Of a stretch of 64,000 nt of DNA, positions 13,587-19,068 are shown one piece after another (positions within the stretch are counted from its first letter, which is position 1; each line of letters starts with the position of its first letter). The notes under the pieces were generated by a model that was not told where the DNA came from, did no database searches, and saw only the letters and a program-made list of their open reading frames with translations. Both the position numbers and the translations under genes were made by a program. This DNA is from Candidatus Bathyarchaeia archaeon (GTDB lineage: Archaea > Thermoproteota > Bathyarchaeia > Bathyarchaeales > Bathycorpusculaceae), in contig JAVZNE010000004.1 in NCBI GenBank assembly GCA_038882975.1, positions 37,127-101,126 of the forward strand, written 5' to 3'.

Positions 13587-14612
13587 TTATTGCTTCCCCC
13601 TTTTTCTTGCCAATGCCAACCATAAATGATCGCATTCTGGGCGCGGAAGACTTGTTAGGCGATTATCTCTGTGAACCATTAGACGCTTTCTCGGGTTGCT
13701 TAAAAACTCGCCAATAACAGAAGCCTCAATCTTCTCCATTTTCAATTTCTCAATGACAAGTTCTGTGCATTCCGGCTTTGCCGCAATAAGCATAGCTCCA
13801 GAACTTATCAGCTGTAACGGATCTATTACCAGAAGTCTGCAGATTTCCGCCGTTTCTTCCGCCACCGGAACTTCTTCTTCAAAAACTTTAACGCCGAGGT
13901 TTGAGGCATCTGCCATTTCATGGATGCCTCCGAGGACACCGCCTTCCGTTGGGTCGTGCATTGCTTCTACTCCACCTGTTTTAAAGGCTGTAATACCATC
14001 TTTAACAACGCTTATTCTCTCAAAAAACTTCTGTGCAGACTTTAACAGCTTATCATCGGCACCCATATTTAGAAGCAGATTATAACGTTCAGTTGCAAGT
14101 ATGGCTGTTCCTTCTATGCCAGCACTCTTTGTTAAAATGAGTTTGTCTCCCGGCTTGGCTCCACCAGCTGTGACGTAACACCCCTTATCTGTTATTCCTA
14201 GGGCGCATCCTATAACAACTGGATTGGCAAGTCCAGGCGTTACCTCGCAGTGCCCACCAGTAATTGCCATTTTCAAATCTTTTGCAGCGGCATCCATCTG
14301 AGAACAGATAACCTCTATGATTTTTCGATCAGCATTTTCTGGAAGGAGTATGCATGAAAGGAAAAACGCTGGTTCCACACCGAAAGTGGCAACATCATTC
14401 GCATTGATGTTCACCGCAAGCCAGCCAATACGCTCAACAGCTCCAGTAATGGGATCCATCGAAGCTACTAGGGATCTCTTGCCCAAATCTATGACTGCGC
14501 CGTCAAAACCAACTGAAGGCCCGAGGACAACTTCCGTCCGTTTAAATCCCAAATTTTTAAAGACAACCTCTGTAAGTATTTCGACAGGGATCTTTCCCAT
14601 GGGCAACTTCAT
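13587..14612 (-). CDS. AIR-synthase (PurM/HypE/ThiL) superfamily ATP-dependent protein, unknown substrate
   Basis: DPIT, NANDVATFG, GGHCEVT, MHDPTEGG; lacks the HypE C-terminal PRIC. Confidence 0.85.
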   Translation of the reverse strand: MKLPMGKIPVEILTEVVFKNLGFKRTEVVLGPSVGFDGAVIDLGKRSLVASMDPITGAVERIGWLAVNINANDVATFGVEPAFFLSCILLPENADRKIIEVICSQMDAAAKDLKMAITGGHCEVTPGLANPVVIGCALGITDKGCYVTAGGAKPGDKLILTKSAGIEGTAILATERYNLLLNMGADDKLLKSAQKFFERISVVKDGITAFKTGGVEAMHDPTEGGVLGGIHEMADASNLGVKVFEEEVPVAEETAEICRLLVIDPLQLISSGAMLIAAKPECTELVIEKLKMEKIEASVIGEFLSNPRKRLMVHRDNRLTSLPRPECDHLWLALARKRGKQ

Positions 14613-14635: not shown

Positions 14636-15355
14636 TTAGATTTTAAATATCCTTTGTGCATTTTGCTCTAAGACCATATCAAGCTGCTTTTTTGTTAAAC
14701 CAGCAACTTCAACTTTTTTAATTTCAAAGGCAGGGTGGCCGAAAGGCATATCAGACCCGTAAATAACTCTGTTCTCACCGATTTTTAAAACAGCCTCCTT
14801 TATTTTGCTATGCATAGGCATCGCAGATGTTTCTAGTATTATGTTTTCATGTTTTTGTGCAACTTCTATGGCTCCGTTAATGTAAACTATATGCCCGTGG
14901 CCCATGTGGCCCAAAATAATTGAGACATCTGGGTACACGTCAGCTAAGTTTCCGAAGTGCCACGGCAAAGACCATGGTGGATGACCGCAATGAAAAAGAA
15001 CTGGCACCTTATATTTACGAGCTTGATCCATTATAGGGTAAATGATGTCTTGATCCGGCAAGTACGCGTTAAGTAAGGGGTGCATCTTTATTCCTCTGAA
15101 ACCCCATTTGTTAATTGCTTTGTCTACTAGTTTCACAGCATCTTCGCCGTCGTGGGGGTTGACCCAGACAAGGCCCACAAGTTTCTCTGGATATAACTTA
15201 ATTGCGTTTTGGGTCAATTGATTTGGTAAGGAAAAGACTATACACTTTTTTATGTTGCATTCATCCATAATACGCAGCATTCCTTCAACGTCTAATTCAA
15301 CGTTGAAAACGGGAAATTTGCCAAGATGAGTGTGGGAGTCTATAACCATCATCAA
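14636..15355 (-). CDS. Amidohydrolase family (TIM-barrel metallohydrolase)
   Basis: IDSHTH, KMHP, FHCG, GHMG, YGSDMP. Confidence 0.9.
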   Translation of the reverse strand: MMMVIDSHTHLGKFPVFNVELDVEGMLRIMDECNIKKCIVFSLPNQLTQNAIKLYPEKLVGLVWVNPHDGEDAVKLVDKAINKWGFRGIKMHPLLNAYLPDQDIIYPIMDQARKYKVPVLFHCGHPPWSLPWHFGNLADVYPDVSIILGHMGHGHIVYINGAIEVAQKHENIILETSAMPMHSKIKEAVLKIGENRVIYGSDMPFGHPAFEIKKVEVAGLTKKQLDMVLEQNAQRIFKI

Positions 15356-15390
15356 TCCTCCACATTTAACTCGGTTTTAGGCCACTAATT

Positions 15391-15930
15391 TTATAGCAAG
15401 TATTCTATTTTTAGTGATCGCCTTAATATTAACAAAATCGGCACCGTCACGATAATGTCTATAGCGCTTAGAGGGAAAAATGTGATTAAGTCTAAATACG
15501 CTACAGGACCAAACAAAAAGAAATCATAAAGAAAATAACCTACGTTTTTCTCGATTGCGGCGAAAACCATTGCTAGAAGTTCGGAACGTCTCGGTTGTGT
15601 TGGAAATAAGCGCCTTAAACTGCCCAGCAGAAAACCCATGAAACCGCGAATAACTATTGTTGCCGGAGCCCACTGTATAAAACTACTACCCCACAGGGGA
15701 TTCCAAACATCAAAGAGCATGGCACCAACACCACATGCGAATAATCCTACAAGAGGCCCACAGAGAATGGCCGCTATAAAAGATGCGATGTCTCCCAGAT
15801 GCCAAACCCCTAAAGGTTTTGGCATAGGAACAGATATGGCTGTCATGGCGTAAACAAGTGCTGTCATGACACCCATAGTTGCTATACCTTTTGAAGGTGA
15901 CACGTTTACACGGAATACTCTCGCGTTCAC
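15391..15930 (-). CDS. ECF transporter substrate-specific (S) component
   Basis: About 6 TM, 179 aa; HLGD..FIAAIL.GP..G....GVG..L.D pattern of HmpT/PdxU-like S components. Confidence 0.8.
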   Translation of the reverse strand: MNARVFRVNVSPSKGIATMGVMTALVYAMTAISVPMPKPLGVWHLGDIASFIAAILCGPLVGLFACGVGAMLFDVWNPLWGSSFIQWAPATIVIRGFMGFLLGSLRRLFPTQPRRSELLAMVFAAIEKNVGYFLYDFFLFGPVAYLDLITFFPLSAIDIIVTVPILLILRRSLKIEYLL

Positions 15931-15959
15931 GTTTTATCCCACATGCGTTGGGAAATTTA

Positions 15960-15998
15960 GTTAAGATATAACTTTACTATATAAAGATTTAGCTTAAC
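15960..15998. promoter_or_regulatory. Imperfect 17-5-17 inverted repeat overlapping the TATA box of the ECF S-component operon (candidate operator)
   Basis: gttaagatataacttta-ctata-taaagatttagcttaac, 14/17 arm positions complementary; minus strand TTTATATA at its centre. Confidence 0.5.
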
Positions 15999-16023
15999 CA
16001 AAAAATGAAAGTTATGAAGATTA

Positions 16024-17427
16024 TTACAACAGAAGTTTTAAGTCATCCAGTGCAGTCAAAACTTTTCTCCCACGCCTCGTTATTTTGTAGTGTTTCCTAC
16101 CGTTTTTTATGCAGCTTACCACCAATCCTCTTCGGGACAGTTCATTTAGGTGTTGGTATATGGCGGCTCTTGTCATTGTTTTTCCGAGTTTTTTCCATAA
16201 ATCGTAGCCATAGGTGTCCCTTTCACTTAAGATCCTAAGTATTTTCGCTTTTGTACTTACTTCCAATCCAATAACTGCTGTTTTCTTTTTCTTTGTTAAA
16301 GCTTGAAGGATGTCTGTTGCTTTTAGACCGCTTCCAGTTATTAAGCATACAACCTTGTCTTTTTTGTCGATAACCCGCTCGTTCATAAGTTTCTTGAACG
16401 CCGCATACGTTGCTGCGCTTGCTGGTTCGGCGAAGATGCCTTCATGTTTTGCGATTTCTTGTTCTGCTGAGAAGATTTCTTCATCTGAAACCGCTATGGC
16501 GGTTCCTTTAGATTCTTTGATGGCTTTAAGGGCCAGTTTGCCATACCATGGTTTTTTAACGAGGATGGCGAGCGCGTGAGTCGAAGGTTTTGTTTTGAGG
16601 GCTGGCTCTTGAATGTTTTGCAGGTATGCGTTTACAATTGGTGAGCATCCTTCTGCTTGAACGCCGACCATCCTTGGAATGGATTTTATTTCGCCTCTTA
16701 TTTCAAGCTCTTTATAGCCTTTCCAGACGGCATATAGTGTTCCGCCGCTTCCCATGGAGGCTATAAACCAGTCTGGAACGCCTATTTGCTCGTAAACTTC
16801 GTAAGCTATGGTTTTTAGGGCTTCCATAGATAGCGGGTTAAATTCGGCGGATCCTTGATACCAGCCCATTTCTTTGGCTAGTTTGTCTGCCCTTTTCAGC
16901 GAGTCGTCTACTATTTCCCCATATTCCTCGATTACAGCGTCGTAGATGAGCATTTGGGCAAGTTTTCCCATATCCACGTTTTTCGGCACTACAACATGGC
17001 ATGTTAATCCAGACTTTGCACAGTATGCAGCCAAAGAAGCCCCAAGATTTCCATTTGTGGCACAGACAACTGACCCATACCCTAAATCTACGGCGTTGGA
17101 AATAATTAAGGCTGCACACCTATCCCTAAAGGAATTTGTTGGGTTTCGCGTCTCATCCTTAAAATGTAGATTGCTTAGCCCAACGTTTTTGGCAAGCCTT
17201 CTCGCCTTAATGAGTGGGGTTCCCCCCTCTCCCATGGAAATAACATTTCTAACTTTTGGCAGAAGTTTCTTGTAACGCCAAAAAGTGAAGGCGCCGACAA
17301 ATCTCGCTTTTTTGAGCGTTTCATCATCGCACTTGCACTCTAGTGGACTGCCACATTCCTTACAAATATGCTGTGGAGGATAAACCTCAAATTTTGCACC
17401 GCAAACCGTACACACCAGATAAAACAT
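16024..17427 (-). CDS. Threonine-synthase-like PLP-fold protein fused to C-terminal winged helix (PadR/ArsR-like); Schiff-base Lys replaced by Arg
   Basis: Zn ribbon CxxC..CxxC, GEGGTPL, NPTNSFRDR (canonical SFKDR), EPASA, TGSGLK, then YGYDLWKKL..AAIYQHLNELSRRGLV..GRKHYKITRRG. Confidence 0.85.
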   Translation of the reverse strand: MFYLVCTVCGAKFEVYPPQHICKECGSPLECKCDDETLKKARFVGAFTFWRYKKLLPKVRNVISMGEGGTPLIKARRLAKNVGLSNLHFKDETRNPTNSFRDRCAALIISNAVDLGYGSVVCATNGNLGASLAAYCAKSGLTCHVVVPKNVDMGKLAQMLIYDAVIEEYGEIVDDSLKRADKLAKEMGWYQGSAEFNPLSMEALKTIAYEVYEQIGVPDWFIASMGSGGTLYAVWKGYKELEIRGEIKSIPRMVGVQAEGCSPIVNAYLQNIQEPALKTKPSTHALAILVKKPWYGKLALKAIKESKGTAIAVSDEEIFSAEQEIAKHEGIFAEPASAATYAAFKKLMNERVIDKKDKVVCLITGSGLKATDILQALTKKKKTAVIGLEVSTKAKILRILSERDTYGYDLWKKLGKTMTRAAIYQHLNELSRRGLVVSCIKNGRKHYKITRRGRKVLTALDDLKLLL

Positions 17428-17500
17428 TATGCAACCTCGTCTCATTTTTCTAACAGTTAGATTTAGCGATCATGTCTATGAGGCTTTCTAAATTTTAGAT

Positions 17501-17749
17501 TTAGGGCTCTAAACCTGGAAGGATGGCAATTATTTCTGCAACTCGCCTCACAATTGCCCAGTCAAATTTAACATCGCTTTCTATATTAACTAATAGACCA
17601 ATTACGTGCTCTTCATTTTCCAATTTTCTTGGACCCGCATCCTTTGGCTTTTTCAGCTCCATAATTGCTGGCAAAAGCATAATGATGATGAAGGTTATAA
17701 CTCCAAAAAACAAAATTACAGCCGACGTTAAAGCCGAATTCTGTACCAT
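17501..17749 (-). CDS. Small single-TM hypothetical protein
   Basis: N-terminal TM followed by ELKKPKDAGP; co-oriented with the GT2. Confidence 0.65.
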   Translation of the reverse strand: MVQNSALTSAVILFFGVITFIIIMLLPAIMELKKPKDAGPRKLENEEHVIGLLVNIESDVKFDWAIVRRVAEIIAILPGLEP

Positions 17750-17760
17750 TCTCTACCTTT

Positions 17761-19068
17761 CTAAAGTTTTGATACGTTCATAATATAACAGTTTCCATTG
17801 CCCGAATGCTCAGTTTTCACCCAGTAGTTGTTGTTTTTCCTTGTAATCTTTGAAATGAGAATGTCGATGAGGGCTTTTGTGCATATGGGAATGTTGTATA
17901 AAAGAATGAAGAAGAGTAGAGGAATAAGCCACTGTGCCCTCTTTCTGCCGTCGAGATAAGCCCCAACGCCAATTTCATAAAATGGGGCAAAGTTTCCAAC
18001 TGAACTGTAAAGGGCGATGGAGGATGTTGTCCAGAAGGAGGCGGTCCATTGTGAAAATTTCAGAAAGGTTAACGCCACTCCAATTAATAAAGAAAAAAGG
18101 ACGACTACGGGGAGAAAATAGACGCTGAGTAGGAGTAATCCGTCAATTTTCTCCTTAGGCCCAATTTTTTTGCTTTTTAGAACTTTTAGCCAATGTTTGA
18201 AGGCGCATTGCATATGCCCTTTAGCCCATCTGTATCGCTGCTTCCAGTAGGCTCGCCAATTTTCAACAGCCTCCTCATAGCACTCCGCGTCACCAGCATA
18301 CTTAACCTTGTAACCAGCGAGATAAACGCGGAAAGTTAAATCTGTGTCCTCTGCCAGAATGTTTTCATCCCATCCGCCGAGGGATTCTAAAAGTGTGCGC
18401 CTAAATCCTCCAACAGTTCCTCCGAACTGTGTTATTAAGCCGAGGCTGTCGCGGGCTTCTTGGTCAACACGGTATCCGCCTATCCTCTCAAGGGCAACAA
18501 GCCTTGTGACAATGTTCTGCGGCTCGTTCAACACAACAACTCTGCCCTGAACGGCTCCAACTTTCGGGTCATCAAACTCTTTCACAAGTTTCTCTACAAT
18601 GTCTCTTTGCGGGTAATAGTCAGCATCAAAGCATAGGACTATTTCGCCGTCAGCTGACTTCATTCCAGCGTTTAGAGCGGCAGCCTTCCCACGTCCACCC
18701 TCCTCTTTACTTCTCTCCACAACAATTATGTAAGGGTGCAGCTTCGAATACTTTTCCGCTATGATTCCTGTCTTATCTGTTGAAGCATCATTTATCACTA
18801 TTACTTGCAACTTATCCTTTGGGTATGTCAGCTCTGTCATTCTTTGAAGAATCCTTCCAATGACGCGTTCTTCGTTGCGGGCAGGTATTAGAATTGAAAC
18901 TTTTGGCTTGTAAGTCGTTTCCGCACTTATGGCTCTAGAACTTCCATTTTTCTTTGGTCTCTTAGCAACAGTTATAGTGAAAATGTAGTGGCGAACAAGG
19001 TATGCCGCCATTAAAGCCGTCGATAAAATGAGCAAAGCTTCCAAAATTTCTATTACCAAGCTTTCCAC
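17761..19068 (-). CDS. Processive GT2 (cellulose/PNAG synthase-like)
   Basis: D, DAD, ED and QRYRW motifs; GKAAALN; flanking TM helices. Confidence 0.92.
   Translation of the reverse strand: MESLVIEILEALLILSTALMAAYLVRHYIFTITVAKRPKKNGSSRAISAETTYKPKVSILIPARNEERVIGRILQRMTELTYPKDKLQVIVINDASTDKTGIIAEKYSKLHPYIIVVERSKEEGGRGKAAALNAGMKSADGEIVLCFDADYYPQRDIVEKLVKEFDDPKVGAVQGRVVVLNEPQNIVTRLVALERIGGYRVDQEARDSLGLITQFGGTVGGFRRTLLESLGGWDENILAEDTDLTFRVYLAGYKVKYAGDAECYEEAVENWRAYWKQRYRWAKGHMQCAFKHWLKVLKSKKIGPKEKIDGLLLLSVYFLPVVVLFSLLIGVALTFLKFSQWTASFWTTSSIALYSSVGNFAPFYEIGVGAYLDGRKRAQWLIPLLFFILLYNIPICTKALIDILISKITRKNNNYWVKTEHSGNGNCYIMNVSKL

Follow-up and report, generated by a model that had tools for sequence, protein, structure and literature searches.

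A threonine-synthase-like protein without the catalytic lysine, fused to a winged helix: a predicted vitamin B6-responsive regulator in Archaea

The bacterial regulators MocR, GabR and PdxR combine a winged helix with a sensor and dimerization domain that resembles an enzyme dependent on pyridoxal 5'-phosphate (PLP). MocR proteins keep the lysine that forms the Schiff base with PLP. According to the available text of PMC5320631, the regulons of bacterial PdxR proteins comprise pdxST, pdxK and pdxU. A system of related design in Archaea is RbkR, in which the fold of an enzyme of vitamin metabolism is joined to a winged helix, and which acts at palindromic operators located at biosynthesis genes and at genes for S components of energy-coupling factor (ECF) transporters; it was predicted by the same comparative approach as is used here (PMC5397151, accessible text). 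Here we analyze a gene present on a stretch of 64,000 nucleotides (the window) of contig JAVZNE010000004.1 from a Candidatus Bathyarchaeia archaeon. It encodes a domain similar to threonine synthase (ThrC), in which the Schiff-base Lys is replaced by Arg, fused to a C-terminal winged helix. Its downstream neighbor is predicted to encode an ECF S component. We assign a probability of about 0.7 to the reading that the fusion protein is a dimeric repressor responding to PLP or another B6 compound, which would act in the way PdxR does but be built from non-homologous parts.

The fusion gene and the parts of its product are located as follows:

16024..17445, minus strand: ThrC-like/winged-helix fusion gene, a single intact open reading frame of 473 codons with an ATG start, encoding 473 amino acids
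17353..17412, minus strand: N-terminal four-cysteine, zinc-ribbon-like motif (Cys12/Cys15/Cys28/Cys31), read from the sequence
16333..17241, minus strand: fold-type II PLP-enzyme domain (PALP, ThrC-like), residues 69-371 (Pfam PF00291, E 7.6e-77)
17125..17127, minus strand: AGG codon for Arg107, at the Schiff-base Lys position of SFKDR (DNA reading and HMMER alignments)
16261..16329, minus strand: flexible linker, residues ~373-395, with low pLDDT between the domains
16054..16242, minus strand: C-terminal PadR-type winged helix-turn-helix, residues 402-464 (Pfam PF03551, E 5.3e-12)

The likely true start of the protein is Met7 (position 17427), where the homologues begin; this gives 467 amino acids, which is also the length of most homologues (119 homologues). 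The minus strand reads TCC TTT AGG GAT AGG within the motif NPTNSFRDR (residues 101-109), and HMMER aligns Arg107 exactly with the Lys of SFKDR in the solved threonine synthases 2zsj (Aquifex) and 2d1f (Mycobacterium). The Schiff-base Lys is needed for catalysis in threonine synthases. The protein scores 209.3 bits against the threonine synthase profile TIGR00260 (cut-off 167.1), and when an AlphaFold2 model (made from a 50-sequence alignment; mean pLDDT 90.3, pTM 0.79) was compared with solved structures using Foldseek, the top matches were all threonine synthases, for example 1v7c_A with an rmsd of 2.0 over 334 columns. Conservation of the four cysteines in the 50-sequence alignment is complete or at least 90%, and the motif is shared with canonical relatives. 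In the 467-residue model the pLDDT drops below 50 at residues 367-389, which belong to the linker. The C-terminal domain that follows matches PadR with 46 bits (cut-off 27); the match to the ArsR-type family HTH_5 is weak (E 3e-4, under its cut-off), and a search of Pfam gave no GntR match to the fusion protein. The modeled domain has the fold of a winged helix, with three helices, a beta hairpin and a final helix (pLDDT ~87-96), and the solved structure closest to the last 84 residues is AphA (1yg2, E 2.7e-4), followed by PadR-family regulators. A preliminary description, made from the letters of the window, had claimed a full ThrC-like domain of fold type II, Arg encoded by AGG in place of Lys, an in-frame C-terminal winged helix, and other motifs that are kept or slightly changed. 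All of this is borne out, the latter motifs being found at residues 129-133 (ATNGN), 230-235 (SMGSGG), 340-344 (EPASA) and 370-375 (TGSGLK); the gene start that it used, 17427, corresponds to Met7.

The loss of the Lys extends across the family. The best 120 homologues, with identities of 65-100%, comprise 116 with Arg, two with Ser and one with Met in place of the Lys; in one the motif is unreadable, and none has Lys. The members named by source are all from Bathyarchaeia. A broader sample consisted of 150 representatives of clusters at 50% identity, in which the winged helix was scored as covered when at least 50 residues aligned in that region. This was the case for 81 rows, of which 73 are non-Lys, six are Lys and two are gapped at the Lys column. 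The residues replacing Lys are Leu (20), Arg (16), Ile (14), Val (6), Thr (5), Met (4), Phe (3) and five residues seen once each. Among the rows with Lys, four (P0219, P0240, P0253 and P0270; 610-633 amino acids) have a C-terminal extension of another kind. The 69 rows without the winged-helix region comprise 67 with Lys, one with Arg (a fragment of 247 residues) and one with Val. The pooled 270 proteins contain 131 Arg fusions, 60 other non-Lys fusions and two Lys fusions; hence Lys is almost never kept in the fusions (2/193), versus 67/67 of the full-length relatives that lack the winged helix.

A FastTree tree was built for the ThrC part only (153 rows), excluding fragments shorter than 340 amino acids and rows gapped at the Lys column. 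All Lys proteins without a winged helix fall on the same side of a well-supported branch, a side with 70 rows, the fusions of the hydrophobic type form one supported clade (51 rows), and three changes suffice for either trait, loss of the Lys or the winged helix. The two Lys fusions may be either survivors or reversions on this unrooted tree. Arg is conserved at 35-100% identity and across two phyla, with the frame intact throughout. By these comparisons Arg107 is a trait of a large family and not an error or chance event, because it is conserved among the homologues. A sequencing error or private polymorphism at the AGG codon was considered and is ruled out by the conservation of Arg in homologues and in the genomes of relatives. 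With respect to reads, a contig of public run X1 covers positions 17017-17328 with 0 differences, but X1 is possibly the source sample and hence does not provide independent support; no difference at 17125-17127 is present among the 40 contig differences listed out of 486. Metagenome contigs place the stretch and diverged relatives of it in hot-spring runs of four studies.

The genomes of 41 relatives were compared, with the source genome counted among them. Of the 41, 27 contain an orthologue of full length (58-84% identical), the source genome included, and one more genome has a truncated copy; Arg was found in 27/27 orthologues readable in relatives. ThrC-like paralogues without a winged helix were fetched from 16 of the 41 genomes, and these have Lys in 19/19 cases; a twentieth fetched ThrC-like gene is a second fusion, with Ile at the Lys position. 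Same-genus relatives contain both the Arg fusion and a Lys thrC. Judged from these comparisons, the fusion gene is a paralogue of the working enzyme. In G034 (L035/L074), G139 (L067) and G232 (C17:22567-24884), which belong to one family of the order, a Lys-type thrC is divergent from the Arg fusion or located a few kb from it.

The source genome (1.42 Mb, 94.7% complete) yielded no second thrC, with SFKDR, by profile search or tblastn, no match to homoserine dehydrogenase (PF00742) and no homoserine kinase gene thrB over the cut-off. Since there is no threonine pathway in this genome, the fusion gene cannot be explained as the threonine synthase of the organism. It does exceed the TIGR00260 cut-off (209 versus 167 bits), and it is the sole ThrC-like gene in its genome. 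However, an ordinary threonine synthase, or an AGG codon that is an error or private mutation in a decaying gene, is scarcely credible in view of the Arg that persists in intact frames at 35-100% identity in two phyla, the coexisting Lys-type paralogues of the relatives, and the missing hom and thrB. In addition to thrC, hom and thrB over the cut-off, neither pdxS nor the gene for DMRL synthase was found in the source genome, in which ThiC is present; this suggests that this lineage of hot-spring Bathyarchaeia may have several amino-acid and vitamin auxotrophies.

The fusion proteins have a place in NCBIfam under the name "threonine synthase". The 442-position profile of the equivalog NF004170 (PRK05638) spans residues 11-466 of the fusion protein, including the winged helix; profile positions 3-441 are matched, with a score of 409.1 bits that is just under the cut-off of 421. 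Relatives in G033 and G139 are likewise slightly under the cut-off. Across 201 sampled genomes of the phylum, six matches exceed the cut-off, and all six combine Arg with a winged-helix tail at the C-terminus; among the best 30 loci 29 have Arg and the thirtieth is unreadable. NF004170 is thus, by its sequences, the family of Arg-type fusions, whose members lack the key catalytic residue. A database search seeded with a Desulfurococcaceae member gave 107 new proteins, of which 94 have the Arg motif and 13 fall outside the motif pattern. It showed that the Arg form exists in cultured archaea, namely Thermogladius sp., Thermosphaera chiliense and many Thermococcus species, including T. onnurineus NA1, where the records call it "threonine synthase" or "pyridoxal-phosphate dependent enzyme". 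Of 41 sampled Thermococcaceae genomes, 34 contain a full-length fusion, three a split or fragmentary one and four none. In Thermococcus (L118-L132) the fusion gene is located 3' of a proteasome-subunit gene and a gene encoding ~650 amino acids in 15/15 loci, and the next genes encode a small membrane protein and a ribose-5-phosphate-isomerase-like protein in 13/15 (all named by eye).

The active site has been kept in part. In the 131 Arg-type proteins, the Phe preceding the Arg is present in 99% and the D-R following it in 100%; G-N of the asparagine loop is conserved in 100%, the glycine-rich G-S-G-G-T in 85-100%, E-P-A-S in 91-100% and T-G-S-G-L-K in 88-100%, and the loops that would contact the cofactor therefore appear to be under selection. 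Pairwise alignments show that the S-T-G-N-T loop of 2zsj and 2d1f reads T-N-G-N-L in the fusion protein, and that N-P-x-R-x-E-G reads N-P-L-S-M-E-A, with the Arg replaced by Ser. We take this Arg to be the residue that binds the substrate phosphate in 2zsj and 2d1f; structural work on Thermus ThrC reportedly identified the S-T-G-N-T loop and the Arg of N-P-x-R-x-E-G as substrate contacts. From this pattern, which is as expected if the cofactor site is still used and catalysis on phosphohomoserine is not, we infer that the enzymatic activity has probably been lost.

A protein that is bifunctional, in the manner of RbkR or BirA, would regulate and also catalyze a reaction, either without an internal aldimine or on another substrate. 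This is decidedly unlikely: the Schiff-base Lys is required in threonine synthases, and its position takes Arg, Leu, Ile, Val, Met, Thr, Phe, Ser, Tyr, Ala, Asn or His across the family, which is hard to fit to a catalytic role. What speaks for it is the strong conservation of the active-site loops, together with the kinase activity that the archaeal riboflavin regulator RbkR retains (PMC5397151, accessible text).

The predicted target of the regulator is located directly downstream of the fusion gene on the same strand, where a gene encoding a membrane protein is preceded by a palindrome:

15391..15930, minus strand: gene for an ECF-transporter S component of family PF07155 (PdxU/HmpT family), 179 codons (Pfam E 6.4e-20)
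15957..15980, strand not assigned: 24-bp imperfect palindrome with core AGTT-N2-4-AACT at the S-gene promoter, the predicted operator (matrix match)
15978..15985, minus strand: TATA-like box TTTATATA, which overlaps the palindrome at the latter's 5' edge (read by eye)

The only meaningful solved relative of the S component is chain S of 4hzu (E 1.5e-5). This structure, 4HZU, is HmpT, with pyridoxamine given as its substrate in the available portion of PMC4860826, and according to the accessible part of PMC9997740 COG4720/PF07155 is the family of PdxU and PdxU2/HmpT, which are the sole ECF S components known to take up B6 vitamers. The T component of the ECF module of the source genome is encoded at C1:346002. 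Of 51 non-redundant Arg-type loci, drawn from several families of the phylum, 35 have a PF07155 gene next to the fusion gene, and in 34 of these 35 it is downstream on the same strand; the distant, Desulfurococcaceae-like defining members of NF004170 are included.

In the short spacers between the fusion and S genes of relatives, the palindrome directly follows or overlaps a TATA-like box. A position matrix was made from 22 relatives' sites, with the window's own locus excluded, and a score of at least 14 was taken to define a site. Scanning the 1.42 Mb source genome gave 15957-15980 as the best match (score 24.3); the next match scored 17.5, and the maximum in the reversed genome was 10.8. 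The second-best match (C1:15634, 17.5) is located inside a small AbrB/SpoVT-like open reading frame, in a region of short, possibly mobile genes, and is taken for a chance match, the remaining matrix matches being at control level. A site is present in 32/51 fusion loci and is always ahead of the S gene: it was found in 32/35 loci with an adjacent S gene and in 0/16 without one, and nine of the 32 sites are independent of the construction of the matrix. In two loci (L025 and L078), ~670 bp are inserted between the two genes and the site remains with the S gene; it therefore belongs to the S promoter and not to the end of the fusion gene. Among relatives without the fusion, 0/11 loci around the best PF07155 gene have a site (none scores above 8). 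A search of Rfam gave no match to a riboswitch or other known RNA at E up to 1 across 15300-17800. We regard the PF07155 S component as the predicted regulated target and a candidate importer of B6 vitamers.

The same palindrome is located at B6 biosynthesis genes. We did not find pdxS in 39/41 genomes, the source genome included, which points to a need for B6 uptake in the order and to widespread B6 auxotrophy in this hot-spring order of Bathyarchaeia. The only two genomes of the 41 with pdxS, G017 and G018, both contain the fusion, and in both the operator is located close ahead of pdxS and follows a TATA-like box; these sites score 29.0 and 25.3 and are outside the matrix set. In Thermococcaceae, where the fusion gene is not beside an S gene, the link comes from the operator. 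In five genomes, 6/6 PF07155 genes are preceded by a TATA-like box and then by a palindrome having this core in intact or degenerate form. A genome-wide search of five Thermococcaceae genomes with the 18-mer pattern TTCAAGTT-NN-AACTTGAA gave six exact and two one-mismatch sites, all upstream of pdxS or a PF07155 gene; matches with two mismatches were as frequent as with a reversed control pattern. The pdxS promoters of Thermococcaceae have the site or a close variant in 6/6 fusion-bearing genomes (strict core in G236, G237 and G256; close variants in G247, G277 and G260) versus 0/4 genomes lacking the fusion. Similarly, the strict core is found at 8/12 PF07155 genes of fusion-bearing genomes versus 0/2 of fusion-lacking ones, with a background of three matches in 42,844 nt elsewhere in Thermococcaceae loci. 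The co-occurrence of palindrome and fusion is a consistent observation in two phyla and not a statistical proof. In G255 (C1:1996261-1997561; L153) the fusion is split by a TAA stop, and the PF07155 palindrome is intact (9/10 pairs). The fusion-lacking loci L151 and L152 (G268 and G252) have apparent decayed half-site remnants upstream of PF07155, at the same position behind the promoter.

The palindrome might be owned by another regulator, RbkR or an unlinked factor, in which case the adjacency of the fusion and S genes would have another cause. According to the accessible text of PMC5397151, RbkR controls genes for ECF riboflavin S components in Thermococci, and its Thermoproteales motif AAACT-N2-AGTTT is similar in composition to the palindrome described here; moreover, DMRL synthase is missing in 40/41 genomes of the lineage. 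Nevertheless, the half-sites of RbkR have the reverse order, 40/41 relatives possess an RbkR-like gene irrespective of the fusion, and the palindrome was found only where the fusion is present in the genomes examined. As far as the available texts state, RibU is COG3601 (PMC5397151) and not COG4720/PF07155 (PMC9997740). In addition, pdxS is not a riboflavin gene, and the second PF07155 paralogue of the source genome, 8.6 kb from rbkR, has a different palindrome. Ownership by another regulator is therefore very improbable. A role in riboflavin supply, for which DMRL synthase in 1/41 genomes and the action of RbkR on ECF importers speak, was the most serious rival considered and is ranked low. 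The RbkR-like gene of the source genome (C9:5101-5469) encodes a CTP-dependent riboflavin kinase in a 239-codon frame. The second PF07155 paralogue (C9:14043), preceded by a perfect 16-bp palindrome that is unlike 15957-15980, is probably the RbkR-controlled riboflavin importer; in 13/40 genomes a PF07155 paralogue different from the fusion-linked one is located within 10 kb of rbkR.

The regulon also bears on the ligand. Hydroxymethylpyrimidine (HMP) or thiamine was considered as the transported and sensed compound, on the grounds that HmpT was first thought to be an HMP carrier and that a nearby AIR-synthase-like protein (see below) is distantly ThiL-like. The idea was rejected: ThiC is present in the source genome beside a ThiD-like gene, ThiC (16/41) does not track the fusion, and the predicted regulon includes pdxS. 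A transcription factor built in this way might instead sense threonine, O-phosphohomoserine, serine or the aldimine of PLP with an amino acid. The ThrC descent of the domain favors such a ligand, as do the Lys-type thrC genes divergent beside the fusion gene in G034, G139 and G232. GabR-type regulators sense a PLP-amino-acid adduct, which is a further point in its favor. On the other hand, the predicted regulon consists of pdxS and a transporter of the PdxU/HmpT family and not of threonine genes, the Arg of N-P-x-R-x-E-G and the S-T-G-N-T loop have both been altered, and the source genome has no threonine pathway to regulate. We consider a non-B6 ligand unlikely. The preliminary description had proposed PLP, another B6 vitamer or phosphohomoserine as ligand. 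The B6 part of this proposal is supported by the PF07155 neighbor and by the palindromes at pdxS and PF07155 genes, whereas phosphohomoserine has become less likely because the substrate-phosphate Arg is Ser and the regulon is one of B6 and not of threonine. Its broader proposal of a ThrC pseudoenzyme used as a sensor for PLP or a metabolite by a winged-helix factor finds support in the coupling of Lys loss to the winged helix and in the palindrome at B6 genes; the check that it had set itself, whether homologous fusions retain Lys, was decided in its favor.

The B6-responsive repressor that we favor might work as follows. The ThrC-type domain, having lost the Schiff-base Lys and kept the loops that contact the cofactor, would serve as the sensor and dimerization module. 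ThrC enzymes are dimers. Dimerization would take place through the ThrC-like body, which the flexible linker connects to the PadR-type winged helix, and the two winged helices of a dimer would read the two half-sites of the palindrome (core AGTT-N2-4-AACT). The predicted operator overlaps the TATA-like box and the likely transcription start, and its occupation would block initiation. PLP or a close B6 vitamer phosphate would bind non-covalently in the former active site, as a corepressor that favors DNA binding; without a Schiff base, occupancy would be reversible and would track the free PLP pool. When B6 is plentiful, uptake and synthesis would be shut off by feedback repression. In the source genome, where no pdxS was found, the sole target would be the importer operon, consisting of the S gene and perhaps the amidohydrolase and AIR-synthase-like genes described below; in relatives having pdxS, encoding PLP synthase, this gene would be the second target.

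Several observations weigh against this reading. The S gene is not adjacent in 16/51 Arg-type loci, nor in any of the 15 full-length Thermococcus loci (within 4 kb) or the four Desulfurococcales/Thermoprotei loci. None of 51 loci has a site ahead of the fusion gene itself, which gives no sign of autoregulation. The window's own site, with a score of 24.3, is weaker than those of the relatives (29-40), and its S gene is a different paralogue, ~37% identical (over ~95 residues) to the S genes of same-genus relatives. In Thermococcaceae, the core is present merely as variants at 4/12 PF07155 genes and 3/6 pdxS genes. The operator could belong to another co-occurring factor; the negative sets number 11, 4 and 2, which is small, and the genomes are related. 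Two fusions, P0121 and P0128, retain the Lys. As to the substrate of the S component, Pfam's own name for PF07155 is riboflavin transporter family, and the lineage is also without riboflavin synthesis. Finally, no RNA runs containing the stretch were listed.

Two further genes follow the S gene on the same strand:

14636..15355, minus strand: amidohydrolase_2 gene (Pfam PF04909, E 1.2e-25)
13587..14612, minus strand: AIR-synthase-like gene of the PurM/ThiL/HypE/SelD superfamily (Pfam AIRS and AIRS_C)

The amidohydrolase gene is possibly co-transcribed with the S gene; relatives do not have it at this place, and its family is outside the ten largest neighbor families of 27 relatives' loci. The AIR-synthase-like gene scores under every NCBIfam cut-off (HypE, ThiL, SelD and PurM) and is found after the S gene in 20/51 fusion loci. 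It is pure speculation that its product, an ATP-grasping protein of the PurM fold, might be a missing B6 salvage kinase; the sole Phos_pyr_kin gene of the source genome adjoins ThiC and resembles ThiD. In same-genus relatives (L010-L019), the S genes encode ~250 amino acids and the fusion proteins are 80-84% identical to that of the window. The window's locus differs in that the amidohydrolase_2 gene is inserted ahead of the AIR-synthase-like gene and in that the distal half of the operator is weaker. It seems that the target gene has been replaced locally and that the regulatory site was kept.

In a sister subfamily (L103-L117; G025, G107, G151 and others) the Lys is replaced by Leu, Ile, Val, Met or Thr. 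In this subfamily a PF07155 gene is beside the fusion in 10/15 loci, mostly in divergent orientation, and a different AT-rich palindrome is present in the short shared spacer, just ahead of the fusion start. It is possible, though doubtful, that the whole ThrC-winged-helix superfamily, the Arg-type proteins together with this sister clade, is the missing archaeal B6 regulatory system, that removal of the Schiff-base Lys turned its PLP-enzyme fold into a reversible reader of free PLP acting as a repressor of pdxS and PdxU-type importers, that its subfamilies read different B6 vitamers or related heteroaromatic phosphates, and that the AIR-synthase-like gene encodes the missing B6 salvage kinase of Bathyarchaeia lacking pdxS and pdxK.

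We found no description of a ThrC/winged-helix protein or of a PLP regulator of fold type II in the full-text literature searched, which leaves outside subscription-only papers and supplements (tables of PMC9997740 and PMC5320631 may list such genes). Nor did that literature describe archaeal control of B6 synthesis or uptake; it treats the PLP-responsive MocR/PdxR proteins as bacterial. Taken together, the comparisons suggest that the fusion family is a widespread, systematically misannotated and undescribed regulator of B6 synthesis and uptake in Archaea. If so, it would be a second, independent route to a transcription factor with a PLP-enzyme fold, having another fold type, another DNA-binding domain and the catalytic Lys removed, and it would be a clean natural case of a pseudoenzyme turned sensor. 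It would also give an archaeal ECF S component a testable B6 substrate assignment. The name "threonine synthase" may lead reconstructions of Bathyarchaeia, Desulfurococcaceae and Thermococcus to credit threonine synthesis wrongly, as in the source genome. The family is present in cultured Thermococcus, in which the prediction is directly testable.

Compared with the threonine synthases 2zsj, 2d1f, 1v7c and 6nmx, the fusion protein has the same fold, with 34-39% identity and an rmsd of 2.0-3.2 Å in the better superpositions, and it has the glycine-rich phosphate loop as well as the N-terminal four-cysteine motif of the archaeal subfamily. It is unlike them in the change of Lys to Arg, the altered substrate loop, the additional linker and winged helix, and the lack of a pathway context in its own genome. 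The best solved relatives of its winged helix belong to the PadR family (AphA, 1yg2; PadR, 4esb and 9qbc). PadR proteins have an N-terminal winged helix followed by a dimerization helix or domain. The winged helix of the fusion protein is instead a C-terminal appendage (residues 402-464 of 473) on an enzyme fold of 390 residues. In its general plan the protein resembles MocR, GabR and PdxR, and the PdxR regulon of pdxST, pdxK and pdxU (PMC5320631, available text) matches the predicted regulon of pdxS and the PF07155 gene. However, the sensor of these bacterial proteins is of fold type I and their winged helix is N-terminal and of the GntR type, whereas the fusion protein has a ThrC fold of type II and a C-terminal winged helix of the PadR type. 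By analogy, this archaeal protein would work like PdxR without being a member of that family or homologous to it as a whole, and the view that it is the fold-type II counterpart of the fold-type I MocR/GabR regulators, put forward in the preliminary description, gains support from its PALP/ThrC fold, its PadR winged helix and its predicted B6 regulon. Within Archaea the nearest parallel is RbkR, but RbkR works as a kinase, has its MarR-like helix-turn-helix at the N-terminus and serves a different vitamin, whereas the catalytic residue of the fusion protein has been lost (PMC5397151, accessible text, for RbkR).

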